A stretch of DNA of 64,000 bases from Acutalibacteraceae bacterium (GTDB lineage: Bacteria > Bacillota > Clostridia > Christensenellales > UBA1242), in contig CAVCHC010000001.1 of NCBI GenBank assembly GCA_963602035.1, positions 25,351 to 89,350 of the forward strand. The letters are read 5' to 3'. Both the position numbers and the translations under genes were made by a program. How positions within the stretch are numbered: the stretch's first letter is position 1; the number at the start of each line of letters is the position of its first letter. Under the pieces are notes generated by a model that saw only the letters and a list, made by a program, of their open reading frames with translations, had not been told where the DNA came from and made no database searches. Shown here piece after piece: positions 501 to 58,701 of the stretch.

Positions 501-1272
501 ATATTGCTGTCATTGCGAGCGCAGCGTGGCAATCCCATTGTTAAAGTTGCAAGTTGAAATGCGGCTTGAAATTAAAGTTTAAAGTTGAAAGTTGAAAGTT
601 TAAATGCGGACGAGATTACAACATTACTACGAAGAATTGCAACGAATTTACTCATATAATTCCCAACTCCGCCCCCTTCTCGTCGCAACACGAACTTGTT
701 TTACGCTCAGCATTGCTAACGCAAGGGTTCGCTTTACTTACGTTCGGTTGCTCCTCTTCGCCTGCAAATTTTGTTCCAAAATTTTTGGCGAGCACGCTGA
801 CGCGTGAGGATAAAGCGGATAAGGATATAATGAGAGGGTTAATAAGGCAACTTGAAAAAAGAAAATACTCTATGTATGTCGAGATTGATAAACATAGAGT
901 ATTTTTTTATTATGATAATATTTTTGTCATTACAAGAAAACAAAACCGACATAGCAATCTCAGCCGCTTTATAGTACTCTCGTTTTTTATGCGGACTGAT
1001 TAACCCCTCTGTCTCGTTACGCTTTACGCTTCACTCAACGACCCTCCCCCTAAAGGGGGCGGAGTTGGGGAGTGTATAGGTAGATTTCAATTAATAATGA
1101 TTATTTATCGACAGTTTGTTTTAACCACGGTTGTAAGCGTAAATATATTTACAACGAACACTGACCGAAGTGCAACGTAGGTTTGGTGAGGGGTAAATGT
1201 ATTTACGCGGGTATATCAATTAACAATTGTAAATCCTCGGCCGCTTCTTTTCACTCTTAACTCTTCACTTTC
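501..1272. repeat. intergenic mosaic repeat complex 1
   Basis: Module order: A 508-540; AAAGTTK heptamer arrays 542-606; nested-palindrome element 662-1069, which contains module C 681-806 and module A 925-967; module E 1136-1210; RAGTGAA heptamer array 1244-1272, in minus-strand sense, abutting the cmk stop. Confidence 0.85.
662..1069. mobile_element. MITE-like nested-palindrome element, rearranged copy
   Basis: Left end is cccaactccgccccc. Right end is ccctccccctaaagggggcggagttggg. The inner core matches copies at 6023-6399 and 35653-35950 (gagggttaataaggcaactt ... tgcggactgattaacccctc) and has a terminator-like hairpin aaaatactctatgt/acatagagtattttttt. The left arm is replaced by module C. 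Confidence 0.7.
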
Positions 1273-11194: not shown

Positions 11195-11304
11195 AGTTTC
11201 TCCTTTTTTGCGCAGCACCAACACGGCCGCGTTTTTTATTACCCCAATTTTGCCCAACGCCGCACAGTTTTATTCAGCCCGCGAAAGGGAAGTTTGAGGT
11301 AAAG

Positions 11305-11402
11305 TGGGTGAGATTGCCACGTCACTTCGTTCCTCGCAATGACAACAGTATTCCCAGCCGCATTTCAACTTTCAACTTTAAACTTTCAACTTTTAACTTT
11401 AA
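11305..11402 (-). repeat. module A plus inverted AAAGTTK heptamer array
   Basis: gagattgccacgtcacttcgttcctcgcaatgaca (11310-11344), then ccgcatttcaactttcaactttaaactttcaacttttaacttt (to 11402). Confidence 0.8.
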
Positions 11403-15560: not shown

Positions 15561-15617
15561 ATGTGTAATATTCGCGGGCAGATTGGGTCGGCGGATTTAT
15601 TGAAAAAGGAAGAAAAA

Positions 15618-16373
15618 ATGAGCAAAGTTTCAATAAAAAATCAAAAGTTTAGGCTTGGCTATCCAAGCACGCTTATATTTGACAATATGGGCAAAACGAT
15701 TAATGTTTTCAGGGTTGAGTACCTGCGTGACATTCCGCGTTTTAACATCAAAAAAGGTGACAAGGGCGGGTTTGTTGAGTATGCGGGCAACCTTAGTCAA
15801 GACGACGACGCGGTTATTGTTGGCAACGCGGTTGTAACGGGCAGCGCGTGGGTTTTTGGCGACGCTTGTGTTTGTGGCAACGCGCGAGTGTCTGGCGAGG
15901 CGTGGGTCGGCGAAAAGGCAATTATTTCGGGCGACGGCAGGGTGTTTGACCACGCGGTTGTTGGCGGCCGTGCGCAGGTTTGTATGGGCGCACAGGTGTT
16001 TGAAAATGCACGTGTTGGCGAAGACGCGGTGATAACGGGCAATGCGCGTGCGTGTGGTAATGCGCTTGTTACGGGGTCGGCGAAGGTGTCGGGCTCGGCT
16101 GAGGTTAGCGGCGACGTAAAAATTGGCGACAAGGCGATTGTGACCGACGGGGCAAAGGTTTGTCAGGCGGCGCAAATTAATGGCAATGCGCTTGTTTGTA
16201 AGCGCGCGAAAATCGGCGGCCACGCGAAGATAACTGACAACGCGGTGGTTGGCGGCTATTGCGTTATCGGCGGAAAAACGCAGGTTGTTGGCTCGGCCGA
16301 ACTATCAGGGCACGTTAAAAACTTAGCGGGCGACATCATTGACGCTGACATTCACGTTGAGAAAACGAAATAG
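15618..16373 (+). CDS. left-handed beta-helix (hexapeptide-repeat) protein, YdcK-like paralogue
   Basis: Same architecture as the previous gene (VFRVEYL..KGGFVEYAGNLSQ followed by hexapeptide repeats). RBS AAAGGAAG precedes the ATG at 15618. Confidence 0.6.
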   Translation: MSKVSIKNQKFRLGYPSTLIFDNMGKTINVFRVEYLRDIPRFNIKKGDKGGFVEYAGNLSQDDDAVIVGNAVVTGSAWVFGDACVCGNARVSGEAWVGEKAIISGDGRVFDHAVVGGRAQVCMGAQVFENARVGEDAVITGNARACGNALVTGSAKVSGSAEVSGDVKIGDKAIVTDGAKVCQAAQINGNALVCKRAKIGGHAKITDNAVVGGYCVIGGKTQVVGSAELSGHVKNLAGDIIDADIHVEKTK

Positions 16374-24495: not shown

Positions 24496-25391
24496 TGGGA
24501 TTTTTTAAAAGACTTTTTGAAGGAAACAAGAAAACTAAGCGGTCTTTTGCCGAGAAATTGAAGTATATTTTTACGGGCAACGAGATTGACGAAGAGTTTT
24601 ATGAAGAGCTTGAATATTGCCTTATTTCAAGCGACATTGGGGCGGCCACGTGCGAAGAAATCTTAGACGAGCTTCGCGCGCAGATCAAACTTAAAAAACT
24701 TAAAAAAACTGAGGACTGTAAAGACCTTTTAAAGGATATTTGCGTTGAAATTTTAGAAAAGAACCCCGTTGAAGAGTTTAATAGCCCGGCCGTTTTGATG
24801 GTTGCGGGCGTCAACGGCGTTGGAAAAACCACGGCGATTGGCAAGATTGCTAATGCGTACACAAAACAAGGCAAAAAGGTCATCATCGCGGCGGCGGACA
24901 CCTTTCGCGCGGCGGCGAGCGACCAGCTTGAAGTGTGGGCGAACCGCGCTAAGGTTAAAATCGTTAAATCCAGCGAGGGGGCAGACCCCGGGGCGGTTGT
25001 GTTTGACGCGATTGCGTCGGCTAAGGCCAAGGGCTGTGACCTGTTGATTATTGACACGGCGGGCAGGCTTCACAACAAGGCCAACTTGATGGAAGAGCTG
25101 AAAAAGATTTCGCGTATTGTTGAGCGCGAGTATCCCGAGGCAGACTATCACAAGGCCATCGTTGTTGACGCAACTACTGGGCAAAACGCCTTTAACCAAG
25201 TTGAGTTTTTTGACGAGGCAATAGGCCTAACTGACCTTATCATAACCAAACTTGACGGGACGGCCAAGGGCGGCTTTTTGTTAGGCCTTGCGGGGCAATA
25301 CGAGATACCCATTCGTTTCGTTGGCGTCGGCGAGGGCATAGACGACCTTTTGCCATTTAACGCCCGCGAATTTATGGACTCGATTATTTAA
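24495..25391 (+). CDS. ftsY: signal recognition particle receptor FtsY
   Basis: NG domain motifs GVNGVGKTT, DTAGR, TKLDG. Its ATG overlaps the smc stop (TAATG). Confidence 0.94.
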   Translation: MGFFKRLFEGNKKTKRSFAEKLKYIFTGNEIDEEFYEELEYCLISSDIGAATCEEILDELRAQIKLKKLKKTEDCKDLLKDICVEILEKNPVEEFNSPAVLMVAGVNGVGKTTAIGKIANAYTKQGKKVIIAAADTFRAAASDQLEVWANRAKVKIVKSSEGADPGAVVFDAIASAKAKGCDLLIIDTAGRLHNKANLMEELKKISRIVEREYPEADYHKAIVVDATTGQNAFNQVEFFDEAIGLTDLIITKLDGTAKGGFLLGLAGQYEIPIRFVGVGEGIDDLLPFNAREFMDSII

Positions 25392-25845
25392 AGTAAAGTT
25401 TAAAGTTGAAAGTTTAAATGCGGATGCTTATTTTCAGTATTTCTATTTTTTACATCCGCATAAATATATTTACACTCACCAGCACTCCACTTCGTTGCGC
25501 CAGTGTTCGTTGTAAATATATTTACGCTTGCTGTCGTCGTTACTAAATTAGGCTGCTGCTAATTGTCATTGCGAGGAGCATTAGCGACGTGGCAATCTCA
25601 GCCGCTTTATTCTCACGCGCAAGCGTGCTCGCCAAGGATTTTGGTACAAAATACGCAGGCGAAGAGGAGCAACCGAACGCAAGATAAGCGAACACCTACG
25701 TTAGTAGGGCTGAGCGTCAAACAAGTTCGCGTTGCGACGAGGTGGTGAGGTGTAAATGTATGTACGCGGGTATATGTAATAAATGATTTGTAAATAGTCA
25801 ACTTCTTTTAACTTTTCACTTTTAACTCTTCACTTTTAACTTTTT
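25389..25845. repeat. intergenic mosaic repeat complex X
   Basis: AAAGTTK array 25389-25418 (includes the ftsY TAA), module E (minus) 25456-25528, module A 25564-25604, module C (minus) 25614-25739, half module E 25746-25780, inverted heptamer array 25801-25845. Overall it is the reverse complement of complex Y at 29609-30105. Confidence 0.85.
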
Positions 25846-25856
25846 TATGTTTCCTC

Positions 25857-28953: not shown

Positions 28954-29614
28954 CATTTTAACGCTGTTTCCTGAGATGTTTGAGCCGCTTAAAACCAGCC
29001 TTTTAGGTAAGGCGCAAGAGAGGGGCGTGCTTGAAATCAACCTGATTAACATTCGCGACTATTCGACGGACAAGCACAAAAAGTGCGATGATTATCCTTT
29101 TGGTGGCGGGTGCGGGATGCTGATGACGCCGCAGCCTATCGCAAGCGCGTTTGAGGCGATTGAGGGGTACAAAACTGCGCACAAAATCTTTATGTCGCCG
29201 CGAGGGAGGACGTTTGTTCAGTCGCGCGCGAAAGAACTTAGCCAGTTTGACCATCTTATCATCTTGTGCGGGCACTATGAGGGGGTAGACCAGCGCATTA
29301 TCGACCTGTTTATCGACGAGGAAATTTCAATCGGCGACTATGTTTTAACGGGCGGCGAAATCCCCGCGATGGCCGTGGTTGACAGCGTCGTGCGCCTTAT
29401 CCCCGGCGTGATTGGCGATATCAACTCAACCGAGGACGAAAGTTTTTCGGCGGGCACCCTTGAATATCCGCAGTACACGCGGCCGCAAACGTTTATGGGG
29501 CTAAGCGTGCCTGACGTCTTGATAAGCGGCGACCACGGTAAGGTTGACGCGTGGCGAAAAGAGCAGTCAAGGCTTATAACCGCCGCCCGCCGCCCAGAAT
29601 TATTAAATAAGTGA
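28943..29614 (+). CDS. trmD: tRNA (guanine37-N1)-methyltransferase
   Basis: MKIDILTLFPEMF... canonical TrmD. Overlaps rimM by 11 nt. Confidence 0.96.
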   Translation: MKIDILTLFPEMFEPLKTSLLGKAQERGVLEINLINIRDYSTDKHKKCDDYPFGGGCGMLMTPQPIASAFEAIEGYKTAHKIFMSPRGRTFVQSRAKELSQFDHLIILCGHYEGVDQRIIDLFIDEEISIGDYVLTGGEIPAMAVVDSVVRLIPGVIGDINSTEDESFSAGTLEYPQYTRPQTFMGLSVPDVLISGDHGKVDAWRKEQSRLITAARRPELLNK

Positions 29615-30105
29615 AGAGTTAAAAGTGAAAAGTGAAAAGAAGCGGCTGGAATTAAATTGCTGTTACTAGTAACTTGTACGTGCCTGTCATTGCGAGGAAC
29701 GTAGTGACGTGGCAATCCCATTGCTAGGGGAAGAGACGATGTTACCAGCGCAGCTCCGCCCCCTTGGCTCGTCGCAACTCGAACTTGTTTAACGCTCAGC
29801 CCTACTAACGTAGGTGTTCGCTTATCTCTCGTTCGGTTGCTCCTCTTCGCCTGCAAATTTTATGCTAAAATTTTTGGCGAGCACGCTTGCGCGTGGGGAT
29901 AAATCGGCTGAGATTATCGCGTCGTTACACTCCTCGTAATGACAATTAGCAGCAGACCATTTTAGCGACATCGGTAAGCGTAAATATATTTACAACGAAC
30001 ACTGGCCGAAGCATGGCGTAGGTTTGGTGAGTGTAAATGTATTTATGCGGGTGCACCGAATAGATACTGCAAATAATCGGCCGCATTTAAACTTTAAACT
30101 TTCAA
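29609..30105. repeat. intergenic mosaic repeat complex Y
   Basis: RAGTGAA array 29609-29643 (the trmD TGA stop is part of the first unit), module A 29685-29723, partial palindrome gctccgccccc, module C 29770-29895, module A (minus) 29906-29944, module E 29977-30050, inverted AAAGTTK array 30085-30105. Confidence 0.85.
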
Positions 30106-30152
30106 CAAGCGTGGTTGTGCAAATAAAAATCTGGTTATAAAAGGAGAATAAG

Positions 30153-31007
30153 ATGCTTATACAGTGGTTTCCGGGGCATATGGCCAAAACGCTTAGGGTT
30201 ATTGAAGAAAACCTTAAATTGGCAAATGCTATTATCTATTGTCTTGACGCGCGCGCGCCGTTTTCAAGCTTGAACCCAAAATTTGATAAGATTATAGGCA
30301 ACAAGCCTGTTATTTTCGTGCTTAACAAGGCCGACTTGGCTGACGAGGTGATGACGAAACGTGCGGTTAAAATGCTTGAAAATGAGGGTAAAACCGTGAT
30401 TGTTACCAACGCTAACAGCAACGCTTGTCGCGGGCTGATAACAAAAACGCTTACGGCGGCCTTTAAACAAAAACAAGAGGTGTTTGACCGTCGCGGCGTG
30501 ACGGGCGTTTTAAGGGCGATGGTTATCGGCGTGCCTAACACGGGCAAAAGCACGATAATCAACTTGCTTGCGGGCGAAAAAAAGGCCACAACGGGCGACA
30601 AGGCGGGCGTAACCAAAAACGCCAACTGGATAAAAGTGGCAGACAACATCGAGGTTATGGACACGCCCGGGACGCTTTGGCCAAGCTTTGAAGACCCAGC
30701 CGTTGGGCGAAATCTTGCCATCATCGGCTCGATAAAAACCGAGGTTTTGGATATAAGCGAACTGGGGTTTGAAACCGTCAAACTGCTTATTGACATCGCG
30801 CCCGACAAGCTTAAAGAGCGCTATAAACTTAGCGAGGACGCAGGCGAACTTGCGGCGCTTGACCCGATTGAAATCTATGACGAGATTTGCGCTAAGCGTG
30901 GCTGGATATTAAAGCGCAATGAGATGGACTATGAGCGCGCGGGTAAGGGCATTCTTGACGATTTTCGCTCGGCGCGTATCGGCCGCATAACGATAGACAA
31001 GTTTTAA
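30153..31007 (+). CDS. rbgA: ribosome biogenesis GTPase A (YlqF)
   Basis: Circularly permuted GTPase: NKADL precedes GVPNTGKST and DTPG. Confidence 0.9.
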   Translation: MLIQWFPGHMAKTLRVIEENLKLANAIIYCLDARAPFSSLNPKFDKIIGNKPVIFVLNKADLADEVMTKRAVKMLENEGKTVIVTNANSNACRGLITKTLTAAFKQKQEVFDRRGVTGVLRAMVIGVPNTGKSTIINLLAGEKKATTGDKAGVTKNANWIKVADNIEVMDTPGTLWPSFEDPAVGRNLAIIGSIKTEVLDISELGFETVKLLIDIAPDKLKERYKLSEDAGELAALDPIEIYDEICAKRGWILKRNEMDYERAGKGILDDFRSARIGRITIDKF

Positions 31008-31069
31008 GTAAAGTTTAAAGTTGAAAGTTTAAAGTTTAAATATTGATGTCATTGCGACGAAGCGACGAC
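31005..31069 (+). repeat. AAAGTTK heptamer array plus truncated module A
   Basis: taagtaaagtttaaagttgaaagtttaaagtttaaatattgatgtcattgcgacgaagcgacgac. It includes the rbgA stop and runs to within 10 nt of the rnhB RBS. Confidence 0.8.
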
Positions 31070-31084
31070 TTTTTGGAGAAACAG

Positions 31085-32821: not shown

Positions 32822-32995
32822 ACAGCAGAAGCTGCGACGAATTTATATATACAATTCCCAACTCCGCCCCCTTTAGGGGGAGGGTGGTCGAACGTAGCGT
32901 AGAGCGTAGTGAGACGGAGGGGTTAATAAGTCCGCAGAAAAAACGGTGGTGCTATAAATTGGCAATGTTTGTTTTTTACTAATATTTTATAATAA

Positions 32996-33024
32996 TTTAC
33001 AAAATCTAACTGCGTTGATATAAT
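32996..33024 (+). promoter_or_regulatory. internal promoter of the DUF559 cassette
   Basis: TTTACA-17-TATAAT. The ATG at 33031 lies 6 nt after the -10 with no RBS, so the transcript is probably leaderless. Confidence 0.55.
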
Positions 33025-33030
33025 TTGAAT

Positions 33031-33399
33031 ATGATACAATACAATAACTATAATTATAAATTCGCAAAACGTATGCGCAAAAATATGACGCCGTGGGAGT
33101 TGCGGCTTTGGGAATTATGCTTACGCAAATTACCATTGCGGTTTAAACGTCAACATTTGCTAGGAACCTACATCGTGGATTTTTATTGCGCCAAGGCCAA
33201 GTTGGTTGTTGAAATAGATGGAGGCCAGCACTATTACGATGACGATACACAAAACAAAGATGCCGAGCGAGACGAGTTTTTAAAATCGCAGGGGCTTACG
33301 ATATTGCGCTTTTCGGACACTCACATTCACTATTTTTTTGAAAGTGTGTGCGCAGAGATATACAAGGCAATAGAACCATACTTAAATAAAGAAAGTTAA
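33031..33399 (+). CDS. DUF559 (Vsr/MutH-like fold) endonuclease-domain protein
   Basis: MTPWELRLW..LRFKRQH..YIVDFYC...LVVEIDGGQHY....D..RD.FL...G..ILRF pattern typical of DUF559, 122 aa. Confidence 0.8.
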   Translation: MIQYNNYNYKFAKRMRKNMTPWELRLWELCLRKLPLRFKRQHLLGTYIVDFYCAKAKLVVEIDGGQHYYDDDTQNKDAERDEFLKSQGLTILRFSDTHIHYFFESVCAEIYKAIEPYLNKES

Positions 33400-33444
33400 T
33401 TTTTTAGAAGATGCATATTTTTTAGATTTTGAGAGAACATAATA

Positions 33445-33500
33445 AAAGAAGGTGTTATAGTTCGGTTGGTTTAACCAAATTATAATACCTTCTTTTTTTC
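33445..33500 (+). terminator. hairpin terminator inside the DUF559 element
   Basis: aaaagaaggtgttata ... tataataccttcttttttt, merging into the right TIR. Confidence 0.6.
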
Positions 33501-33668
33501 TGCGGACTGATTAACCCCTCCGTCTTGTGTCGCTCTACGCTCCACTGCGACCACCCTCCCCCTAAAGGGGGCGGAGTTGGGTTAGGGAAGTGGGGCGGAT
33601 GCCATAGGGGTTAAAAGTTAAACCTGAGATTGTATCTTGAAAAAAATGAAAAATTTTGGAAAATTCTC

Positions 33669-35588: not shown

Positions 35589-35652
35589 TGCCTTTTTGCG
35601 GAGTAACGTATGTTAAAATTGACATTGTTAAAGTTATACTCTCTATCCTTTC

Positions 35653-35950
35653 CCCAACTCCGCCCCCTTTAGGGGGAGGGTGGTCGAACGTAGTGTGGAG
35701 CGGAGTGAGACGGAGGGGTTAATCAGTCCGCAGAAAAAACGAGAATATTATAAAGTGGCTGAGATTACCACGTCGGCCTTGCCTCCTCGTAATGACAAAA
35801 ATAATACCACAATAAAAAAATACTCTATGTTTATCAATATTGACTTACATAGAGTATTTTCTTTTTTCGAGTTGCCTTATTAACCCCTCCGTCACGCCAT
35901 CCCTCCACGGTCGGCGTGCCCACCCTCCCCCTGAAGGGGGCGGAGTTGGG
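35653..35950 (-). mobile_element. MITE-like nested-palindrome element (gene-less copy, inverted core)
   Basis: Arms cccaactccgccccctttagggggagggtgg ... ccaccctccccctgaagggggcggagttggg. The core is the reverse complement of the 6023-6399 core, with module A at 35758-35797 and the hairpin aaaatactctatgt/acatagagtatttt. Confidence 0.8.
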
Positions 35951-36144
35951 AAGTGTATGGGGAGATTTCTCTCTATAAGGATATTAACCAGGCAGATAGT
36001 TTTAGAAACGTCAGCAAGCGTAAATATATTTACAACAAACACTGACTGAAACGCAGTGGAAGTTTGGTGAGAGGTAAATGTATTTACGCGGATAAGATAA
36101 ATAATACTAAAAAATAAAAATCAATATTTCAACTTTAAACTTTC
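35951..36144. repeat. module E plus inverted AAAGTTK array
   Basis: Conserved junction gtgtatggggagattt, module E 36017-36091, array 36127-36144. Confidence 0.8.
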
Positions 36145-36179
36145 CGCGTTGTGACGACGCAACGAGGAGGTGGTAAACG

Positions 36180-42970: not shown

Positions 42971-43050
42971 CCGCCTTGCATCGCTTGTAATGACAAATCA
43001 CAGATTGTTTATAAGCCATCCTAATAATACAAGGGGTGGTTTTTTATTTT

Positions 43051-43109
43051 TAAAGTTAAAAGTTGAAATATTGCTGAGATTAATATTGTCATTGCGACGA
43101 CGGGGTGGC
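43051..43109 (+). repeat. AAAGTTR array plus truncated module A
   Basis: taaagttaaaagttgaaatattgctgagattaatattgtcattgcgacgacggggtggc. Confidence 0.7.
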
Positions 43110-43223
43110 TTTTTTTATGCGGAATTTTTGGGAAGGAGTATTATTGATTTTATGTGAGAGATTTTGTGGGGGGAGTTGCGGGTTTGTTGGGGGAAAATTT
43201 GGCGGGAATTTTGGGGAAGGGTA

Positions 43224-43252: not shown

Positions 43253-43345
43253 TGTGGTCGATAAAAAAGGTAAACAAAATCAAATTAAATAGTTGCAAAT
43301 TTTGATTATGTGAATGAATACTACTTTAAGCTAAGGGGGGTAATT

Positions 43346-45166
43346 ATGAAAAAATCTGTTTTATTTTCGGTTTTTTTAAGCGTTATTTTAACGATAACTT
43401 TTGCATTTTCGACCCTTATTGAAACGGGGGTTTTAAGGTTAGCGCACGAGGATAATGGCGACGCGTCACTTTCTTGTGACCACATTTTCAGCACGATTAC
43501 GACGGTGTCAAGCGCGACGTGTACCGAAGAGGGGCACGGCTATCGCGAGTGCACCAAGTGTCACATCAAAAAGGAAGTAACAACGCCAAAAACCGCGCAC
43601 ACGGTTGACGGCTGGACGGTTACGGTTGAGCCAACGTGCGCAAAGGCGGGCGAGGCGTATGGGCGCTGCACAAGCTGCTGGCAAGTTGTTACCAAAACAC
43701 TAGCCAAAAAGGGACACTCGCCAAAGGTAACGTGGACGATTATCAAGGCGCCAACGCTTACCGAGACGGGCTTAAAGGGCATTGAATGCGAGGTCTGCGG
43801 CGAATTTTTGTGCACGGTGACTATGCCAAAACTTAGCGAGCCCGTTGACCCAATTGACCCGGTAGACCCAGTTGATCCAGTAGACCCAACGGACCCGACG
43901 GATCCAACCGATCCGTCGCACACGCACACGTATGATAGCGTGTTTACGATAGACACGGCGGCCACTTGCACAACAGACGGCCAGAAATCGCGCCACTGCA
44001 CGCACACAAACTGCACGGCGCGCACCGACGTAACGGTTATTCCCGCAACGGGGCATAATTACGACGCAGGCAAGGTTATCTTGAAGGCCACCTGCACGGC
44101 GGGCGAGGTTAAACAGTTTAAGTGCACCAACGCGGGCTGCACTCATTCATACACCGAAACGGGCACGGCGCTTGGCCACAACTTTGGCGACTTTACGACT
44201 GAAAGACAGGCAACGTGCACCGAAAGCGGCGTGAAAGCAAGGCATTGCAGTCGCTGTGAAGCGCGCAAAGACGTAACCGAAATCGCGGCGCTTGGCCACA
44301 ATTTTGAAAAGAACTTCACGATAGATTTTGAGCCAAATTGCCTTAGCGACGGCCAGATGTCTCGCCGCTGCACGCGCTGTGAAGAGGCGACCGAAATCAC
44401 GGTTATCGAGCACGACGCGGATATGCACGACCCGATTGAGTCGACCATAATTTACATCGAGGCGACCTGCACAACGGGCGGATATTTGGAATATGAATGC
44501 AGGTATTGTCACCAAGCGGTGCGCATCCATTGTGAAAACGAACTCGGCCACGACGACAACTTTTTGACGGGCGGCGTCTGCGGGCGTTGCGGCGCTACGG
44601 GCACGGGCTATGACGACCTTGGGCACGACTGCGCGCGTCACGGGCACGTGTTCAGCACGGTTGGCGTCTGCGTTTATTGCGGCTATGGCTATGACGAAAC
44701 AACGGGCACCATCATCGGCGTAACTGACCCAAGCGGCTCTCAAACGGGCGGCGCTTCGGGCGGACAAACCACGTGCAGCCACGCGCATACCACAACTGAG
44801 ACCACGCGCGTTTTTCACCTTGACGGGAAAGAGGGCGTGTTTGACGAACAGTATTGCTACGCCGATTGTACGCACCACACGTGCAGCGACTGTGGCAAAG
44901 AATGGTGGGATAATTACGTTTACACCAGCCACACCTTTGCGGGCGGGACGTGCACAAACTGCGGCTTTTCAAAAACGGGCTGCAACCACGACCACGTTGA
45001 GATTATCGACCTGCCACAAGGCTGCGTGACCATCCACCACGGCGAGTGCACAGATTGCGGCGCAACCACCGACGTAACATCGGGCAGCCACGGCACGATT
45101 ATCGTTGACAAGAACGGCAAAAAGTATTGCCTTGCTTGCGGCTGGATCTTTGAAATGAAAGTTTAG
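43346..45166 (+). CDS. membrane-anchored Cys/His-repeat protein 1
   Basis: N-terminal signal/anchor helix. About 8 units of H-x10-14-[AP]TC-x9-11-C-x2-4-C-x12-15-GH. An (x-D-P)8 linker at 43841-43915. A further Cys/His-rich C-terminal region. RBS AAGGGGGG precedes the ATG at 43346. Confidence 0.7.
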   Translation: MKKSVLFSVFLSVILTITFAFSTLIETGVLRLAHEDNGDASLSCDHIFSTITTVSSATCTEEGHGYRECTKCHIKKEVTTPKTAHTVDGWTVTVEPTCAKAGEAYGRCTSCWQVVTKTLAKKGHSPKVTWTIIKAPTLTETGLKGIECEVCGEFLCTVTMPKLSEPVDPIDPVDPVDPVDPTDPTDPTDPSHTHTYDSVFTIDTAATCTTDGQKSRHCTHTNCTARTDVTVIPATGHNYDAGKVILKATCTAGEVKQFKCTNAGCTHSYTETGTALGHNFGDFTTERQATCTESGVKARHCSRCEARKDVTEIAALGHNFEKNFTIDFEPNCLSDGQMSRRCTRCEEATEITVIEHDADMHDPIESTIIYIEATCTTGGYLEYECRYCHQAVRIHCENELGHDDNFLTGGVCGRCGATGTGYDDLGHDCARHGHVFSTVGVCVYCGYGYDETTGTIIGVTDPSGSQTGGASGGQTTCSHAHTTTETTRVFHLDGKEGVFDEQYCYADCTHHTCSDCGKEWWDNYVYTSHTFAGGTCTNCGFSKTGCNHDHVEIIDLPQGCVTIHHGECTDCGATTDVTSGSHGTIIVDKNGKKYCLACGWIFEMKV

Positions 45167-45243
45167 AATTGCTTTCATAAATAATAATTAGATAAAGTTC
45201 TCGGCTTTTACCCCTGACTTGTTGTAATGTATACAATGTTAAA

Positions 45244-45460
45244 CAGTCTCCGCCCCCTTGGGGGAGGGTCGTCTCGCAAACCGCAGAGGTGCAGCGGGAC
45301 AGAGGGGGTCTAAGTCCTATAAAAAATAAGAAGATACTTTACGTTAGTAAATATTTGCTAACATAATGTATCTTCTTTTTTTAAGTTGATTTTATACCCC
45401 CTCCGAGTTTCGTCGCTCTACGCTCCTCAACACTATCCTCCCCCAAGGGGGCGGAGTCTG
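45244..45460. mobile_element. MITE-like nested-palindrome element, subfamily 2
   Basis: Arms cagtctccgcccccttgggggaggg ... cctcccccaagggggcggagtctg. Inner ends gacagagggggtctaagtcct / ttataccccctccgag. Core hairpin aagaagatac..gtatcttcttttttt. Confidence 0.7.
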
Positions 45461-45488
45461 CTCAATGTGGGTAAGTGACTCTAACAAT

Positions 45489-45517
45489 GGGATTGCCTTC
45501 GGTTGCTCGCAATGACA
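45489..45517 (-). repeat. module A (short-core copy)
   Basis: gggattgccttcggttgctcgcaatgaca. Confidence 0.75.
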
Positions 45518-45590
45518 GTTGTGTAGGACATAGTTAAGGCCTAATTTTTTGCGCTGAAAAGTTGCGCGGGGGTGACGCGGCTATTTATAT

Positions 45591-45619
45591 TTGACAAGTT
45601 TGGCGCTTTGTGTTAAACT
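45591..45619 (+). promoter_or_regulatory. promoter of Cys/His-repeat gene 2
   Basis: TTGACA-17-TAAACT, the same unusual -10 as gene 1. Confidence 0.6.
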
Positions 45620-45670
45620 ATCCTCTTAAAGCCTACAAGCAAGTCTGTATATTTACACAGGGAGAGAAAG

Positions 45671-48600
45671 ATGGAAAAAGAAGAAAGGATGAACAGAACG
45701 GCCAAAGTGCTGCTTATTATACTTGCAACGATTGTGATAATCGCGATTATGGCGTTTTTCATTTTGTGGGGCACGGGCGCGCTTGACGGGTTAAAGGGCG
45801 GCAACGCGAGCGCAAAATGCAGCCACACGTTTAACTCGTGGCAGACCGACGTCCAGCCGACGTGCAAAGACGAGGGGCATATGTTTCGCGTATGCAGCAA
45901 GTGTCAGTATCGCGAGACGCGCTCGGTACCAAAGGCCGCGCACACTGTGCATAGTTGGAAGCGTACTGTTGAGCCAACCTGCTTGACGGTGGGGTCACAA
46001 AAGGGGTTGTGCACATATTGCTATCAAGAGGTGACGCAAGACATTCCCGCGCTTGGACATAAGGCCAAGGCCGACCTTGTTGTTAAGGCCGCGACGTGCA
46101 CCGAAGATGGGTCGCAGACGTCAGTTTGTGAGCGCTGCGACGCCGAGATTACAAAAACGACGCTGCCAAAACTTGGGCACGCTTGGGGCAAATACAGCGA
46201 AATTCAAAAGATGACCTGCACGAAAGACAAAATCGAGCGCCGTACCTGCTCGCGTACGGGCTGCGGAGAGCACGAGGACCGCACCACGAAGACCACGGGG
46301 CACACCTACACGGCCGAATACGAAGAGACGCTTGCGCCAACGTGCACGGTCAAGGGTAGCAAGCATAGGTTCTGTGACGTTTGTAACGACGAAGACGTGG
46401 CGGACATTGCGGCGCTTGGCCACGATTACAGCGATGAATGGACGACGGACGAGGCGCCGACCTGCATCAAAGTGGGCAGCAAATCAAGGCATTGCAAGCG
46501 AACGGGCTGCGACGCCAAGACGGACGAAACAGAGATAGAAAAAACGGCGCATAACTGGGGCGCGTGGCTCGAAGAGGTGGCGGCGGACTGTGTAAATAAG
46601 GGCACGAAAAGACACACCTGCCAAACCGCGGGCTGCACGGCGTATGAGACCGATTCGATACCTGCGCTTGGGCACGACTGGGGTGAGTGGGAAAATAACA
46701 CCGCGACGTGCACCAAGGGCGGGACGGCGACGCATACCTGCACGCGTGACGGCTGTGGCGCCAGCGAAACAAAAAATACCGACCCCCTTGACCACGACTG
46801 GGATGAGGGCATTGTTACAACCAAGCCAACCTGCGAAGTAGACGGCGAGAGGACGTTTACATGTAAACGGGGCTGCGGCGCGCAAACCACGGCAATAGAA
46901 CCCGCGACAGGGCATACTGAAAGCGACTGGATAGTTGACCCTGGCGACGAGGCGACGTGTAAATACGAAGGGCGCAAATATAAAAAGTGTACTGTTTGTG
47001 GTGAGGTCTTAGTTGAAGGCGTTATACCGCGTACCGATGACCACCAGTATGGGTCGTGGACGACCGAGCTTGCGCCAACGTGTACAGAAGAAGGCTTGAT
47101 GACGAGAGAGTGCGTTATTTGTGGCCACGTTGATGAACAAATTTTAGACGCAACGGGGCATAACTATCAGGTTTCAAAGGACGATTGCACAGAGCCGACA
47201 TGTACAGTAGATGGCGAAACAGTTAAAAAATGTACTAAATGCGGCGATATAATAACCGAGACGCTGCCAAAACTTGGGCACGTTGAAGGCGATTGGGAAG
47301 TTACTGTTGAGGCAAAGTGTGAGACCGAAGGAACGCGCGTAAAGAAATGTAAAAGATGCGGCGAAATACTTGCTACCGAGAAGATTGACGCTCTTGACCA
47401 TGACTGGGATGAAGGCAAAGAGATCAAGGCAGCAACGTGCGTAGACAAAGGCCAAACGTTGTTTACTTGCAAACGTACAGGCTGTGGCGCGACCAAGACC
47501 GAAGACATCGACACAACGGGTGTGCATACGTGGGATGAAGGCAAAGTTACGACTGAGCCAACTTGCGAAACGGCGGGCGTAAAGACGATTACGTGCGATG
47601 TTTGTAAAACAACAAAAACCGAAGAGATTAAGGCCACGGGGCACACTGAGGCTGAACGCACTACGACCGCGGCAACCTGTGTTGACGATGGAATGAAAGA
47701 AATCTATTGCACGATTTGCAGCAAGGTTTTAAGAACCGAAGAGATTGCGGCCACGGGCGAGCATACGTGGGATGAGGGCGAGGTCACGAAAGAGGCGACG
47801 TGCGTGGAGACGGGCATAAAAACGTATACCTGCACGGTTTGCAAAACGACCAAAACCGAAGACATCCCATTATCTACGGAGCACTCGTGGAACGACGGCG
47901 TTGTAACCAGTGCGGCGACGTGCGAAATAACGGGCGTTAAGACGTATACGTGCAATCTTTGCAGAAAAACAAAGGCCGAGACGATTAGCCCGCTTGGCCA
48001 TAAATACAAAACAGATTATACAGTGGACAAAGAGGCAACCTGCACGGAAAATGGCAGCAAATCTCTCCATTGCTCGCGAAGCGGGTGTACTTCAAAAATT
48101 GGCAGCGTAACGATTAAAGCGCTGGGGCACGATTATGATGAAACCATATTAAAGGCCGCAACTTGCACGGTGGATGGCTTGGCGCAATATGATTGTTCTA
48201 GGTGCACATCTTCGTATACAATTACCATCAATGCGACGGGGCATAACTATCAACTTTCGACGGCCGATAGTGTTTTACCAACATGCACAACAGCGGGCAA
48301 GAACGTCCAAAAATGTACTAAATGCAGCGACACAATAACTGAGACGGTGGCGGCCACAGGACACGCTTTTACGAACGGATATACCGTTGACGTTGAGCCG
48401 ACTTGCACAACGTATGGCTCTAAATCTATGCATTGCGCGGTGGCGGGTTGCTCGGGGCGTTCGACGCCGGTAAGTATCGCGCCAACGGATCACTCGTATG
48501 ACGTTGGTATTCTTCTTACTGAGGCGGACTGCACGCATGCGGCGGTCTATAAGCGGACTTGCCAGAATAAAAATTGCACTAGCACAATGACTGAGTCAAA

Positions 48601-48775
48601 AGGGGCGGCGCTTGGGCATAATTACAAAAATGGCATTTGCACAAGGTGTAATGAGCGTGACCCAGATATCAGCGTTTCGTCGCTTAACGCAAGGCTGATT
48701 AACGCGGCGGTGACCGTTGTTACTAAAAAAGATGAAACGGCGTGCGCGACAACTTTCCGCAAGCTTCGCTGGTAA
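45671..48775 (+). CDS. membrane-anchored Cys/His-repeat protein 2 (about 23 repeats)
   Basis: One N-terminal TM helix (VLLIILATIVIIAIMAFFILW) followed by about 23 units of about 42-46 aa, for example GHDWGEWENNTATCTKGGTATHTCTRDGCGASETKNTDPLDH. RBS GGGAGAGAAAG. Confidence 0.75.
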   Translation: MEKEERMNRTAKVLLIILATIVIIAIMAFFILWGTGALDGLKGGNASAKCSHTFNSWQTDVQPTCKDEGHMFRVCSKCQYRETRSVPKAAHTVHSWKRTVEPTCLTVGSQKGLCTYCYQEVTQDIPALGHKAKADLVVKAATCTEDGSQTSVCERCDAEITKTTLPKLGHAWGKYSEIQKMTCTKDKIERRTCSRTGCGEHEDRTTKTTGHTYTAEYEETLAPTCTVKGSKHRFCDVCNDEDVADIAALGHDYSDEWTTDEAPTCIKVGSKSRHCKRTGCDAKTDETEIEKTAHNWGAWLEEVAADCVNKGTKRHTCQTAGCTAYETDSIPALGHDWGEWENNTATCTKGGTATHTCTRDGCGASETKNTDPLDHDWDEGIVTTKPTCEVDGERTFTCKRGCGAQTTAIEPATGHTESDWIVDPGDEATCKYEGRKYKKCTVCGEVLVEGVIPRTDDHQYGSWTTELAPTCTEEGLMTRECVICGHVDEQILDATGHNYQVSKDDCTEPTCTVDGETVKKCTKCGDIITETLPKLGHVEGDWEVTVEAKCETEGTRVKKCKRCGEILATEKIDALDHDWDEGKEIKAATCVDKGQTLFTCKRTGCGATKTEDIDTTGVHTWDEGKVTTEPTCETAGVKTITCDVCKTTKTEEIKATGHTEAERTTTAATCVDDGMKEIYCTICSKVLRTEEIAATGEHTWDEGEVTKEATCVETGIKTYTCTVCKTTKTEDIPLSTEHSWNDGVVTSAATCEITGVKTYTCNLCRKTKAETISPLGHKYKTDYTVDKEATCTENGSKSLHCSRSGCTSKIGSVTIKALGHDYDETILKAATCTVDGLAQYDCSRCTSSYTITINATGHNYQLSTADSVLPTCTTAGKNVQKCTKCSDTITETVAATGHAFTNGYTVDVEPTCTTYGSKSMHCAVAGCSGRSTPVSIAPTDHSYDVGILLTEADCTHAAVYKRTCQNKNCTSTMTESKGAALGHNYKNGICTRCNERDPDISVSSLNARLINAAVTVVTKKDETACATTFRKLRW

Positions 48776-51079: not shown

Positions 51080-53659
51080 TTGACAAACCAAGAAAACAAA
51101 GAAAAAATGACGCTTGAAAACATCAAACTTGTGCAAGACCAGTTAAAAGACAACGCGATTGCCAAACTGCTTGCCAACGTTAAAAAGGCACGAACAAGAG
51201 TTGACCAGACCCTTGTTTCTTTGCGTGTTAAACAGAAAGAACTTGCAGCCCACGCGGCCGAACAAAAGGCACAAGCCGAGGCAGCAGAGCGCGCAAGATT
51301 AAAGGCAGAGGCGGAGGCAAAAGCCCAGGCAGAGGCAAAGGTGAAGGCCGAAACTAAGCCAGCCCCAGCCGCTAAACCTGCCCAAGCGCCAACGCAAGCA
51401 AGGCCTAATGCGCCACAATCGCGTCCTCAAACTCAAACGCGTGTTTTTGCTAACAACACGAACACGGCGGGCGGGTATCGTAACGGCGGGGTAAGCCCAA
51501 ACTATAAAGGCAATAACCCTCGTCCGTTTGGCGCTAACCCAAGGTTTGGCGCGAATGCTAATGGTCAGGGTACGGGCAGAAACGCTTACGGCGCGCAAGG
51601 TCAAAACAGGCCTAATGGCGCAAGGCCAGCGGGAGCGCGTCCAGCGGGGGCAAACAGGCCAATGGGTACGCCAAGGCTTAAACCTACCGAGGCGTTAGAC
51701 GTTTCAACGCTTGTTAAAAAGGACGTAAGCCATCAAACCAAGAAAAAGACTTTTGACCGCGGCGATGACAAAAAGTCGATGAACAAAAAGGCGCTTGTTA
51801 TGCGCGGGTACGTTGAAGACGCCAGCCTTATGGACGAAGATTTTGTGTCTGGCGGAAAGCGTAAAAGCAAGAAGACGAAAGAAACGCAAACGGTGGTTGC
51901 GCCTCGTGTTGACCACGCGGTTATCACAACGGAGAACCTTACCGTTAAACTTTTGGCTGAAAAAATCGGCCGCCCAGTTACCGAACTTATGAGCAAATTC
52001 TTGATGCTTGGGATGATTGTTAACATCAACTCTAACATCGATTTTGACAGTGCGGAACTTATCGCAAGCGAGCTTGGCGTAACCCTTGAAAAGAAGCTTG
52101 ACAAGACGTTTGAAGAAAAGATGGCCGAGATGCACAATGCCGACGCTGAGGACGAGAAAGACCTTATCAAGCGCCCACCAGTTATCACGGTTATGGGTCA
52201 CGTTGACCACGGTAAAACGTCGCTGCTTGACCGCATCCGTCAAACGCACGTAACCCAAGGCGAGGCGGGCGGAATCACCCAGCACATCGGCGCGTATACC
52301 ATCAAGGTTAAAGGCGAGCAGATTACGTTTATCGACACCCCAGGCCACGCGGCGTTCACGGCTATGCGTAAGCGTGGGGCGAACCTAACGGACATTGCAA
52401 TCTTGGTTGTTGCGGCTGACGACGGCGTTATGCCTCAAACAATCGAGGCGATTAAGCACATCAAAGACGCGAAAGTGCCTATGATTGTTGCCATTAACAA
52501 GATAGACACGGTTAACGCAAATGTTGACCGAATTAAGCAAGAGCTTGCCGAACAAAACGTTATCCCCGAAGAATGGGGCGGCGACGCTATTATGGTGCCT
52601 ATTTCGGCTAAAACTGGTGAAAATGTTGACAAGCTTTTAGAGATGATTTTGTTTGTAAGCGAATATCAAAACCTTCGCGCTAACCCTAACAGGCAGGCCA
52701 GCGGGTCTATTATCGAGGCGCGCCTTGATAAGGGTATGGGCTCGGTAGCGACGGTGCTTGTGCAGAACGGTACGCTTCACGTTGGCGACTTTGTTTTGGC
52801 GGGTACGTGCTCGGGCAAGGTGCGCGCTATGGTTGACGACAAGGGCGCACACATCAAGTCGGCTGGGCCATCAACGCCAGTGTCGATTTTGGGGCTTACG
52901 GGTGTGCCTAACGCGGGCGACTCGCTTTACGCGGTAGACGAAAAACTTAGCAAGCAGGTTGTTGCAGAGCGTATTGAAAAAGAGCGTATGGGGCTTATCA
53001 AAAAGGCCGACCTTTCGGTTGACTCGCTTATGAACCGTATCGCAGACAGCAACTTTAAAGACTTTAACGTTATCATAAAAGGTGACGTTGCGGGCTCGGT
53101 TGAGGCGCTTAAAGAGACGCTTAGCGCTATCGAAAACGAAGAGGTTAAAGTGCGTTGTATTCACGGCGGCGTTGGCGCGATTAATGAAAACGACGTTATG
53201 CTTGCCCAAGCGGCGCACGCGGTTATCATCGGCTTTAACGTTAAGCCTGACTTTAAGGCGAAAATCCTTGCCGAGAAATATAAGGTAGACATTAAATTTT
53301 ATAAGATTATTTATGAGGCGATTGAGTTTGTAACCCAGTCTATTGAAGCGATGAAGACGCCTAAGTTTGAAGAGGTTATAACGGGTCACGCCGAGGTAAG
53401 GCAGTTGTTTAAGGCCAGCAAGGTTGGCACAATCGCGGGCTCGCATATGCTTGACGGTAAGATAACCAAACAAAGCAAGGTTCGCATTACGCGCAAAAAC
53501 AAGCTTATCTTTGAAGGCAACGTTGCGTCACTTCAACGTGAGAAAAACGAGGCCAAAGAGGTGCTTGCGGGCTTTGATTTTGGCGTTACGTTTGACGGGT
53601 TTGGCGACATCGAAGTTGGCGATATGATAGAAGCGTACAGCCTTGAAAAAATTAAATAG
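51080..53659 (+). CDS. infB: translation initiation factor IF-2
   Basis: [14 protein letters not shown] and NKID G-domain motifs. Low-complexity Ala/Gln/Pro-rich N-terminus. TTG start 7 nt after AGGAGA. Confidence 0.96.
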
Positions 53660-54969: not shown

Positions 54970-55049
54970 TGCTGTCGCGGCTGTAAAAAGGTAATTCAGT
55001 TTGATTAACGTAGTTACGGCTGTAAAAAGTAATTCGGTTTGGCTAATAA
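54931..55049 (+). repeat. 3 x about 40-bp tandem repeat that reiterates the nrnA end and stop
   Basis: gttatcgcggccgtaaaaaaggtaattcagtttaacTAAt / gctgtcgcggctgtaaaaaggtaattcagtttgatTAAc / gtagttacggctgtaaaaagtaattcggtttggcTAAtaa. Confidence 0.85.
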
Positions 55050-55098
55050 ATACAGACAGTCAATCAACAAAAAGTATTGCAAAAAGTGGTGAGATTTG

Positions 55099-55995
55099 AT
55101 GAAAGGCTTTTTTAATATCAACAAGCCGCGCGGGATGAACTCGACCAAGGTGGTGGCGATTATCAAGCGCCTTACGCACGAAAAGGTGGGGCATCTTGGC
55201 ACGCTTGACCCCGATGCGCACGGTGTTTTGCCCATCGCGGTTGGCAAGGCGACGCGGCTGTTTGACTTTTTTCTTAACAAAGACAAGGTGTATGAGGCGC
55301 GCGGGCGGTTCGGCGTTTTAACCGATACGCTTGACGAAAGTGGGCGCGTAGTTTTAACGAACGACGTGCGGCCAACGCGGGCGCAGTTAGAGGCGGTTTT
55401 GCCGATGTTTTGTGGTAAGCAAATGCAGATACCGCCTATTTTTTCGGCCAAGCAGGTGGACGGCGAGCGTGCGTATGACAAGGCGCGCAGGGGCGAAGAG
55501 GTGACGCTTACTCCGCGCGAGATTAACATTTTTAGCCTTGAACTTTTGAGTTTTGAGGGCGACGAATTTTCGGTGCGCATTCACTGTTCGGCGGGCACCT
55601 ACGTTCGGGCGCTTATTCGCGACATTGCTGAAAAACTGGGCGCCATCGCCACAACGGTAGACATTTTCAGGACACGTTCGGGCGCATTTGACATCGCCTC
55701 GTCAATATCTATTGATAATATTTGTCATAGCGAGGAGCAAAGTGACGTGGCAATCCCATTGTCAAACCCAAGCTCGTCCGCTTTGCAACTAATTTCGATT
55801 GAAGACGCGCTGTCAGGGCAAGAAAAGGTGCGCCTAACCGAGCCGCAGGTGCAAAACCTGTTGTGTGGGCGCGGGCAAATGGTTTCATATAAAGACGCGA
55901 AAAACGTGCTGTTTTTGACGCCAGATGGCGACACGTACGGCCTTGGCGACATTGAAAATGGGCAGATAAAAATCACGGCATTTTTGTTAGATTAA
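55099..55995 (+). CDS. truB: tRNA pseudouridine55 synthase, carrying an in-frame module A insertion
   Basis: GHLGTLDPDAHGVL catalytic motif. The segment CHSEEQSDVAIPL is encoded by repeat module A. Confidence 0.9.
   Translation: MKGFFNINKPRGMNSTKVVAIIKRLTHEKVGHLGTLDPDAHGVLPIAVGKATRLFDFFLNKDKVYEARGRFGVLTDTLDESGRVVLTNDVRPTRAQLEAVLPMFCGKQMQIPPIFSAKQVDGERAYDKARRGEEVTLTPREINIFSLELLSFEGDEFSVRIHCSAGTYVRALIRDIAEKLGAIATTVDIFRTRSGAFDIASSISIDNICHSEEQSDVAIPLSNPSSSALQLISIEDALSGQEKVRLTEPQVQNLLCGRGQMVSYKDAKNVLFLTPDGDTYGLGDIENGQIKITAFLLD
55719..55762 (+). repeat. module A copy inside the truB coding sequence
   Basis: atatttgtcatagcgaggagcaaagtgacgtggcaatcccattgtc, compared with the intergenic copy tgtcattgcgaggaacgtagtgacgtggcaatcccattg at 29685-29723. 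Confidence 0.85.
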
Positions 55996-57738: not shown

Positions 57739-58701
57739 ATGCTTGAATTGTTGCTTTCAAAGCGATTGTTTGAGGCGGTAAAAAATGCTTTCAACCTGAA
57801 TTTTGTTTACGAAATAAGGTTGCGGGTTGGCTGTCCGCTTGTTGTGAACTTTGGCGGAAAGAACTGTTTTATAAAAGATAAAAGCGTGATAAAAGATAAA
57901 AGTGTGGGCTTTCGGGCTGAGTGCGGGGCTGCAAATTACGTTTGCTGTACGCGTGAAGACATAAAATTTTGCCTTGCGGTTGCTACTGAAAACTCGATGT
58001 ACGCGGTCAACAACCAGATAAAACAAGGGTTTATAACGTTTAGGGGCGGGCTGCGTTTGGGGCTTGCGGGCGAGGTGGTGACTGGCGCTGCGGGCGAGGT
58101 TGAAACCATAAAAAACATCACTGCGATTAACATTCGCGTACCGCACGAGGTCAAAAATTGCGCGCACACGGCGCTTACGTTTATGCTTAACGGTGGGCTT
58201 AAAAACACGCTGATTATTGGGCCTCCGGGGTCGGGCAAAACGACGTTTTTAAGAGATATTGCGCGTGGAATTTCGGCGCACACAGATATTTCAAACGTCC
58301 TTATCGTTGATGAAAGGCTTGAAATTGCCAACTGCGTTGATGGCGTGCCGACGCTTGACGTTGGGCAAACGGCTGATGTTATAAGCGGGGCGAATAAGGA
58401 ATATGCTTTTCGTGAGGGGGTGCGCACGCTTAAACCGGACGTGATTATCTGCGACGAGATTGCAACGGCGGCCGACGCGGAGGCTGTTAAAACGGCGGCG
58501 TTTTCAGGAGTTAAGGTTATTGCAACGGCGCACGGAGCAAGCGTAAATGACATCAAAAGCCGTGCCGAACTTGCGCCGCTTTTAAGCGAAAAAGTTTTTG
58601 AGCGTATCGTTGTTTTGTCTTGTCGGTGTGGGGCGGGCACTTATGAACACATCTTTGACGCCTCACTTAACACGCTTTACAAACCTACGACAACTCAATA
58701 A
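57739..58701 (+). CDS. spoIIIAA: stage III sporulation protein AA (ATPase)
   Basis: Walker A GPPGSGKTT and Walker B-like VIICDEI. It is the first gene of an eight-gene spoIIIA-like operon downstream of efp, as in Bacillus. Confidence 0.85.
   Translation: MLELLLSKRLFEAVKNAFNLNFVYEIRLRVGCPLVVNFGGKNCFIKDKSVIKDKSVGFRAECGAANYVCCTREDIKFCLAVATENSMYAVNNQIKQGFITFRGGLRLGLAGEVVTGAAGEVETIKNITAINIRVPHEVKNCAHTALTFMLNGGLKNTLIIGPPGSGKTTFLRDIARGISAHTDISNVLIVDERLEIANCVDGVPTLDVGQTADVISGANKEYAFREGVRTLKPDVIICDEIATAADAEAVKTAAFSGVKVIATAHGASVNDIKSRAELAPLLSEKVFERIVVLSCRCGAGTYEHIFDASLNTLYKPTTTQ

Follow-up and report, generated by a model that had tools for sequence, protein, structure and literature searches.

How did a short repeat that elsewhere lies between genes come to be translated within a conserved enzyme, and what has become of it there? 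The question is raised by truB, the gene for tRNA pseudouridine-55 synthase, in a 64-kb stretch of an Acutalibacteraceae genome (contig CAVCHC010000001.1; this whole stretch is called the window below), where the coding sequence contains a copy of a dispersed repeat, here called module A. Comparison of sequences confirms that the segment is an in-frame copy of the intergenic module and is absent from TruB orthologues outside the clade. We consider the insert very probably a tolerated, old and still-rearranging selfish repeat of the repetitive extragenic palindrome (REP) type, with no required function.

The truB gene and its in-frame repeat copy

The host gene has the features by which a TruB is recognised, a TruB_N catalytic domain and a C-terminal PUA fold. 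Solved TruB chains in the PDB match its product at an E of about 1e-41, and the motif HLGTLDP, with the GTLDP aspartate, is invariant across the TruB protein alignment. A preliminary description of the window had reported within this gene a 46-nt string nearly identical to an intergenic repeat copy and read through in frame near the junction of the catalytic and PUA domains. The string is present, at 55718-55763, although the coordinates given for it (55719-55762) are one base short at each end. Positions 55723-55761 are the same as 29685-29723 at 35 of 39 positions, and a degenerate pattern covering both 39-nt cores occurs at exactly two sites in the window, where 0.00 are expected (100 shuffles). 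The gene reads N207-I-C-H-S-E-E-Q-S-D-V-A-I-P-L-S222 through the segment with its frame unbroken, and the domain junction was the right place to put it, because Pfam sets TruB_N at aa 25-169 (E=6e-51) and a weak TruB_C_2 at aa 170-208.

While the reported core of the repeat was right, its end was placed too early: homology to the tails of other copies continues to about 55788, and because it does so we delimit the repeat-derived linker as 24 codons. The parts of the gene that concern us are as follows.

55099..55995, + strand: truB (tRNA pseudouridine-55 synthase), the host gene, 298 codons plus stop, ATG at 55099
55720..55791, + strand: variable, repeat-derived linker, 24 codons (I208-L231) between the conserved ...SISIDN and ISIEDAL..., from alignments of ten alleles and outgroups
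55723-55758, + strand: 36-nt module A copy, full and in frame
55723..55726, + strand: TGTC head, the unpaired tag, which starts all seven full copies in the window
55727..55734, + strand: left arm ATAGCGAG (consensus ATTGCGAG)
55735..55745, + strand: variable centre GA-GCAAAGT-GA, a mini-hairpin in which G.T and C-G pairs close AAA, with tandem GA on either side
55746..55754, + strand: right arm CGTGGCAAT
55755..55758, + strand: CCCA tail
55759..55779, + strand: 21-nt stretch encoding LSNPSSS, seen against alleles L025 and L019 and found only in the allele lineage of the window, L026 and L147
55780..55788, + strand: GCTTTGCAA, homologous to the (A/G)CTTTA(C/T) tail of the copies at 11309 and 25564 and to ACTTTACAC in other truB alleles

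The peptides encoded by the insert in the window are CHCEERSDVAIP and NICHSEEQSDVAIPLSNPSSSALQ; a T-to-A change in the left arm replaces Cys by Ser and turns CHC into CHS. Two intergenic copies, at 508 and 45488, have tails that match CCCATTGTCAAA of the truB linker, and their CCCATTGTyAAA resembles the first bases of the 21-nt stretch, the remainder of which has no second copy within the window.

Copies elsewhere in the window

With a full copy defined as one that starts TGTCAT(T/A)GCGAG and ends CAATC(C/T)C(A/C), relaxed searches of the window gave seven full copies of module A, six besides that in truB, and two left-arm fragments at 31047 and 43087. The six are listed here.

508..537, + strand: short form with centre CGCAG, intergenic, 8 nt past a stop codon
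10277..10314, - strand: degenerate copy, intergenic
11309..11344, - strand: full copy, intergenic
25564..25600, + strand: full copy, intergenic
29685..29720, + strand: full copy, the one cited in the preliminary description, intergenic, 72 nt downstream of a + strand gene
45488..45517, - strand: copy with tail CCCATTGTTAGAGTCACTTACCCACATT, intergenic; the tail matches the spacer 'x' of truB alleles L020, L001 and L021

The short form at 508 is the same as that in truB alleles L019, L023 and L024. All copies share the arms ATTGC...GCAAT, and the TGTC head recurs in all truB alleles. The consensus is TGTC-ATTGCGAG-centre-CGTGGCAAT-C(C/T)CA, with centres GA-ACGAAGT-GA, GA-ACGTAGT-GA and GA-GCATTAGC-GA in other copies, and what follows GGCAAT is CCCA or CTCA in six of the seven full copies.

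Among the nine copies and fragments the one in truB is the sole genic copy, the fragment at 31047 touching merely the first codons of a putative open reading frame (ORF). If placement were random, the probability of finding two or fewer of nine in ORFs would be 2e-4, taking the window as about 81% coding from a rough ORF map. Six of the eight intergenic copies and fragments lie downstream of a gene and are co-oriented with it. The cores of five other intergenic repeat modules likewise lie outside genes, the exceptions being two chance 8-mers. Most module A copies are preceded by an AATATT/TAATT-like sequence.

Insertion rather than native sequence

Is the segment foreign to TruB? A homologue search covering 5.8 billion proteins returned 23 clusters of close relatives with 81-96% identity to the window TruB and then a gap, the next best matches being at most 57% identical. 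In these outgroup TruBs (46-57% identity, labelled as Clostridia metagenome-assembled genomes (MAGs)) the linker has about seven residues, e.g., LTNPEKN; between the conserved ...(L/I)D(E/D)(L/I) and (L/I)IS(I/L)... there are 22 residues in the window and seven in the outgroups. Module A was not found in the outgroup truB loci (about 6.6 kb each). The insertion proposed in the preliminary description is thus upheld by orthologues that lack the segment, and we saw no orthologue from a module-A-free genome that carries the same peptide, the outgroup loci having a short linker and no module A. P0146 (280 aa), the single cluster member of lesser length, was considered as an empty-site allele and rejected, since it is N-terminally truncated and module G, a second intergenic repeat described below, is still there.

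Linker polymorphism among close relatives

We compared ten truB alleles: that of the window, L001 (from the human-gut MAG UMGS2070) and L019 to L026. Outside the linker their flanks are collinear over 621 + 201 nt with zero indels, and the pairwise ratio of nonsynonymous to synonymous divergence (dN/dS) in these flanks is 0.07-0.36; truB is under purifying selection. The linkers themselves measure 45, 51, 69, 72, 105, 114, 126 and 186 nt, lengths that are all divisible by three; none contains a stop codon, and together they represent eight combinations of two intergenic modules, A and the palindromic G.

Short-form A: L019
Long-form A: L025
Long A plus 21 nt: window, L026
A-short, x, A-long: L020, L001
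G1 alone: L022
G1 plus A-short: L023
G2 plus A-short: L024
G2 plus A-long, x, A-short: L021 (336-aa protein)

In the window, CTCCGCCCCCTT..GGGGGAGG mosaics near 10115, 32836 and 33486 match G1 and G2. The branching of a neighbour-joining tree built from the truB flanks is incongruent with the linker architectures, and the same architecture recurs in different subclades. For instance, the sister pairs L020/L022, L023/L001 and L019/L025 differ at 11-15 of 822 flank positions (98-99% identical), and their linkers are unlike. Only frame-preserving, stop-free states are seen, and change at the site outpaces that in the surrounding gene. Between L023 and L022 there is a 45-nt difference bounded by CCTATTT/CTTATTT, a pair that fits a target-site duplication, sequence of the element itself, or direct repeats of a deletion equally well.

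The preliminary description had offered a very recent event as one of two readings of the insert, and this is not borne out: the window architecture is also that of L026, at a synonymous divergence (dS) of 0.10, and a repeat insert of some kind fills the site in all 23 close-relative clusters, at dS up to 0.35. The alleles are not peculiar to single assemblies. The cluster of 309-aa alleles has 48 members (the 15 listed all of 309 aa) and that of 297-aa alleles 18, from many assemblies; the window allele was found identical over 2,897 nt in a Logan assembly, which may derive from the same sample.

Does the surrounding operon vary in the same way? Window and L021 share 89-100% identity in the neighbouring genes from rimP to spoIIIAB (of which that for the AP endonuclease is unreadable in L021), and we found no module-type indels there. 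SpoIIIAA differs from that of L021 by a tandem IKDKSV duplication (window 57871-57906) and IF2 by eight residues in an Ala/Glu/Lys low-complexity N-terminal region (window 51302-51361); both are indels of the ordinary slippage type and involve no repeat module. Just upstream of truB, the distance to the DHH-family gene also varies, being 126 nt in the window (54970-55098), 254 nt in L026 (1947-2200) and about 46 nt in other relatives. The tandem module A units in P0005 and P0011 (L020, L021) encode CHCER...CHCEER, with four Cys and two His in about 25 residues, which could in principle bind metal; the window allele has CHS, and the region is modelled as disordered. On a 3.4-kb scaffold (L148 2790-3367, P0023) the 5' part of truB runs into module A, module G, another A and an unrelated opposite-strand gene, and the PUA part is missing; the join is either a repeat-seeded assembly chimera or a real rearrangement.

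Structure and tolerance of the insert

The AlphaFold2 model of the window TruB has a mean predicted local distance difference test (pLDDT) score of 87.7 and falls below 50 only at residues 212-227 (EEQSDVAIPLSNPSSS). Foldseek superimposes it on E. coli TruB (1k8w_A) with a template modelling (TM) score of 0.87, PUA domain included. The 336-aa allele is modelled with the same fold, its residues 212-263 lying below a pLDDT of 50. In the model the insert sits after the short helix that follows the last strand of the catalytic domain and before the strand that opens the PUA domain. The modelling for which the preliminary description had asked places it in a low-confidence surface loop between the two domains, and the models predict a TruB fold unaffected by this disordered loop. 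The other reading offered at the outset, a tolerated peptide insertion, agrees with the loop on an otherwise confident model, with the flank dN/dS and with the zero indels in the flanks of the ten alleles. Removal of the insert by splicing or bypass was considered and rejected because all length variants are in frame and stop-free, a constraint that would not exist if the segment were removed.

The family to which module A belongs

What kind of element is module A? A scan for exact arms (TGTCATTGCGAG, a 3-20 nt centre, CGTGGCAATCC) matched at least 120 metagenomic stretches (sediments, lakes, mats, human gut) and 92 viral-contig stretches, the latter a hint at a route for horizontal spread. 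Among the matches listed there are 93 distinct centres, and of the 82 centres of at least 9 nt, 59 pair into a Watson-Crick stem of three or more bp (shuffles: mean 4.0, max 11). Because these stems have 43 different sequences among the matches listed, structure is conserved where sequence is not. An opposite-orientation related unit follows within 80 nt downstream in 35 of 134 metagenomic copies among the matches listed; module A occurs as singletons in the window and as head-to-tail pairs in truB alleles. The idea of module A as a strong palindrome was rejected, since single copies, except that at 29685, fold no better than shuffles; a signal of structure, in the form of a variable inner hairpin, emerges only across the family.

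Rfam gave zero matches, both for the whole window at gathering thresholds and, with E allowed up to 10, for 55600-55900; module A is thus no curated RNA family. When protein databases were searched with the peptide that the repeat encodes, there were no candidates, and literature searches with the peptide and DNA strings of the element brought up merely unrelated matches and primers. In the metagenomic sample, in-frame copies of the family occur in at least five real genes, whose Pfam domains flank the insert or span it.

L138: isoleucyl-tRNA synthetase (IleRS)
L038: Lgt
L075: Maf
L102: linker between AroK and AroB
L062: lipoate-protein ligase LplA, between its two domains

Several of the in-gene metagenomic copies are oppositely oriented doublets, e.g., VIASPDLSGRGNP...RYARND in IleRS, and the hosts are unrelated organisms. 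Arrays in which 5-15 units follow one another head to tail, one about every 40-45 nt, were seen at L152 2669-2857 and in L155, L187 and L199 (IMG/VR) and L045 (metagenome); that in L152 lies between two minus-strand genes.

Comparison with known repeat systems

In-frame insertions of REPs and of Rickettsia palindromic elements (RPEs) have already been described in genes that include truB of other bacteria and an IleRS (Di Nocera, De Gregorio & Rocco 2013, BMC Genomics 14:522; PMC3733652). The truB hosts are S. alaskensis (aa 169-177), E. litoralis (aa 164-190), S. maltophilia (aa 10-16) and R. conorii, whose truB carries RPE-1 (PMC3733652). Here the insertion is at aa 209-230, as against about 165-190 in the alphaproteobacterial proteins (each in its own numbering).

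Module A is most readily compared with the CGTC superfamily of REPs, and within it above all with CGTC-3. An unpaired tetranucleotide tag (CGTC, or TGTC/CCTC in many members), a stem that begins A-T, T-A and a 3' tail that fits CCA all have their counterparts in module A, and members of both are multi-copy, dispersed, mostly intergenic and preferentially 3' of genes, with occasional in-frame genic copies. The CGTC-3 peptide VIAGLDPAIH would back-translate to GTCATTGCCGGGCTTGACCCGGCAATCCA (GTCATTGCCGGG-CTTGA-CCCGGCAATCCA), whose ATTGC...GCAAT-CCA ends are those of module A (from Additional file 3), and atypical loops have been noted in some CGTC-3 families (PMC3733652). There are differences too. 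The published CGTC stem is an uninterrupted 8-9 bp with a loop of 4-5 nt, whereas module A has a 5-bp outer stem, a conserved mismatched GAG / CGTG and a variable inner hairpin or 5-nt centre (centres 3-20 nt); CGTC repeats are predominantly head-to-head dimers, an arrangement for which module A gives a mixed picture, its units being single or head-to-tail here and some metagenomic copies having an oppositely oriented neighbour; and the phylum of our Clostridiales host is not among the five listed in PMC3733652. We regard module A as a REP-like element of CGTC/TGTC type that resembles the superfamily without all of its defining features, and assign it to no named family.

RPEs are the classic case of selfish DNA translated within functional genes (PMC10969869). 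Like module A they are palindromes lying in frame in functional housekeeping genes in a fold-compatible way (Ogata et al. 2000, cited in PMC10969869 and PMC3733652). However, RPEs are restricted to Rickettsia and RPE-1 is about 150 bp long and encodes a conserved peptide of about 45 aa, whereas module A has 30-36 nt and its truB site is a mosaic of different modules, polymorphic between close strains; furthermore, the RPE-4 and RPE-6 peptides (VIPWLDHGI, VIPAKAGI; Additional file 3) imply arms ATTCC...GGAAT and not the ATTGC...GCAAT of module A. The REPs of the REPIN-RAYT system and the bacterial interspersed mosaic elements (BIMEs) of E. coli (Bertels & Rainey 2011, PMC3116915) are likewise short structured palindromes in mosaic intergenic arrays, mostly 3' of genes. 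Module A differs in lacking the GTAG head (GTAG occurs by chance in the loop of one copy) and in forming no REPIN doublet in the window, and GTAG REPs are largely lineage-specific whereas the arms of module A are conserved across phyla. Nor does it have the dimensions of miniature inverted-repeat transposable elements (a length of 70-300 bp with terminal inverted repeats of 15-30 bp), its unit being 30-36 nt and its only inverted arms ATTGC/GCAAT. The small dispersed repeats of Nostoc described by Elhai et al. (2008, Genome Res) are reportedly 21-27 nt long, structured, with compensatory changes, and often set in tandem heptamer arrays. They resemble module A as tiny structured repeats beside heptamer arrays (module A often follows (AAAGTTG/T)n) and differ in sequence, in phylum and in not being noted mainly for in-frame insertions into genes.

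How the truB site may have evolved

In the account that we favour, module A is a small REP-type palindrome dispersed mainly just downstream of genes in the genome of an uncultured gut Clostridiales. One copy lies in the naturally variable linker between the catalytic and PUA domains of truB, where it is co-translated as about 15 extra residues that are modelled as a disordered loop. Because there is no empty allele across dS up to 0.35, this first insertion probably predates the diversification of the clade. Later remodelling would have duplicated and lost units, exchanged short and long forms, and gained and lost module G, mostly by short direct repeats slipping or recombining unequally, by gene conversion with the intergenic mosaic arrays, and by allelic recombination between strains. 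Selection probably acts only as a filter on frame and stop codons.

Several points weigh against this account. An insert present in every allele, with conserved arms retained, could mean usefulness. An empty-site truB allele was sought within the clade and none was found, the boundaries of the insertion being inferred only from outgroups of at most 57% identity, and each change may have been an insertion or a deletion. Module A does not have the stem and loop dimensions of CGTC repeats, and its single-copy hairpins are merely marginally stable. No transposase turned up, but none was sought, as the ORFs of the window were not scanned for PF01797; we know of no transposase linked to CGTC-type REPs since 2013.

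Could the linker instead be a preferred target, its eight architectures being mainly independent insertions of A and G? Such repeated de novo insertion, which overlaps with the old, rearranging insert that we favour, is a possibility of lesser but real weight. Two unrelated families fill the same few nucleotides, REPs lie in the truB of several unrelated bacteria, the bounds of the L023/L022 difference look like a target-site duplication, and the AATATT/TAATT-like sequence before most A copies could be a target preference. However, this A/T-rich left flank may belong to the element; loss of the 45 nt between 7-nt direct repeats would explain that difference equally well; the recurrence of architectures across subclades is more simply explained by allelic recombination; and neither an empty site in the clade nor a transposase (none having been sought) was seen. 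A bolder version is that the truB linker is an active landing pad for a still-mobile family of TGTC-headed REPs with arms conserved across phyla and in viral contigs. This we think rather unlikely, but if it were true, near-identical strains with filled, doubled and swapped units would be a natural before-and-after series that could yield the mobilising enzyme and the target rule of CGTC-type REPs, for which no linked transposase is known (PMC3733652).

Has the insert acquired a function? It might serve as an RNA hairpin by which the nusA-infB-rbfA-truB mRNA is stabilised or processed in the manner of a REP, or as a peptide that alters TruB, for example through its Cys-His-Cys motifs. That some insert is kept in every allele of the clade, that the arms stay near the family consensus, that 55690-55800 gives a local RNA fold with z = -2.4 and that an effect of REPs on mRNA stability is reported (PMC3733652) all speak for co-option. 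Against it, alleles do not share what fills the site: some have G without A, their peptides are completely different, and CHC is changed to CHS in the window. The models show the insert as disordered, hairpins of single copies do not exceed shuffles in stability, and Rfam has no match. We hold co-option to be improbable.

Two further explanations can be set aside as very improbable. A native variable linker, whose resemblance to the module is coincidental or from which the intergenic module derives, might be suggested by linker lengths that differ between phyla (E. coli TruB presumably has about 20 residues at this position), but is contradicted by the 35/39 identity against a chance expectation of 0.00, by outgroups without the segment and by a family with identical arms that recurs across more than 200 stretches of unrelated metagenomic and viral contigs. 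An assembly chimera made by the repeat or a decayed truB (a pseudogene) has in its favour the L148 scaffold, which shows that the repeat can mislead assemblers or promote rearrangement, but is at odds with the same in-frame architectures in dozens of assemblies from different samples, with inserts shorter than a read pair, with dN/dS well below 1 and with an intact C-terminal PUA part.

The phenomenon of a REP- or RPE-type repeat decorating a protein is known; what adds interest here is the gut Clostridiales setting and a strongly polymorphic hot spot of several modules. In-frame decoration of this type, known mainly from Proteobacteria, is extended to an uncultured human-gut Clostridiales lineage, and truB is a recurrent host of such elements, four other bacteria having already been noted. 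The locus is also a natural experiment on insertional tolerance, in which one interdomain loop takes 6 to 55 extra, unrelated, repeat-encoded residues, and its polymorphism could help to reveal how tagged REPs without a known transposase move. In practical terms, the hypervariable in-frame linker is usable as a strain marker, and annotators and assemblers should be aware that repeat-derived peptides like CHCEERSDVAIP within real proteins are neither errors nor domains.

Other repeats of the window

At least six recurrent modules besides A make up intergenic mosaics in the window, at a repeat density unusually high for a bacterial genome. The mosaic regions are:

500-1300, 3900-3960, 6000-6650, 10100-10360, 11260-11400 and 25380-25850
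29590-30110, 31000-31070, 32830-33620, 35610-36150, 43030-43110 and 45250-45520

Their modules include (AAAGTTG/T)n heptamer arrays, often just before module A, the palindrome GTAAATATATTTAC, GGACTGATTAACCCC, and module G, the palindrome CTCCGCCCCCTT..GGGGGAGG; a mosaic unit of ~150 nt occurs at 679-828, 25597-25741 and 29768-29917. Direct repeats with an 18-nt period (family D2) lie at 14738-15955 (around 14.7-16.0 kb). In the region 43310-48775 two large ORFs, of 618 and 1034 aa, have internal repeats of 65-130 nt (families D5 and D13) and probably encode repetitive surface proteins.

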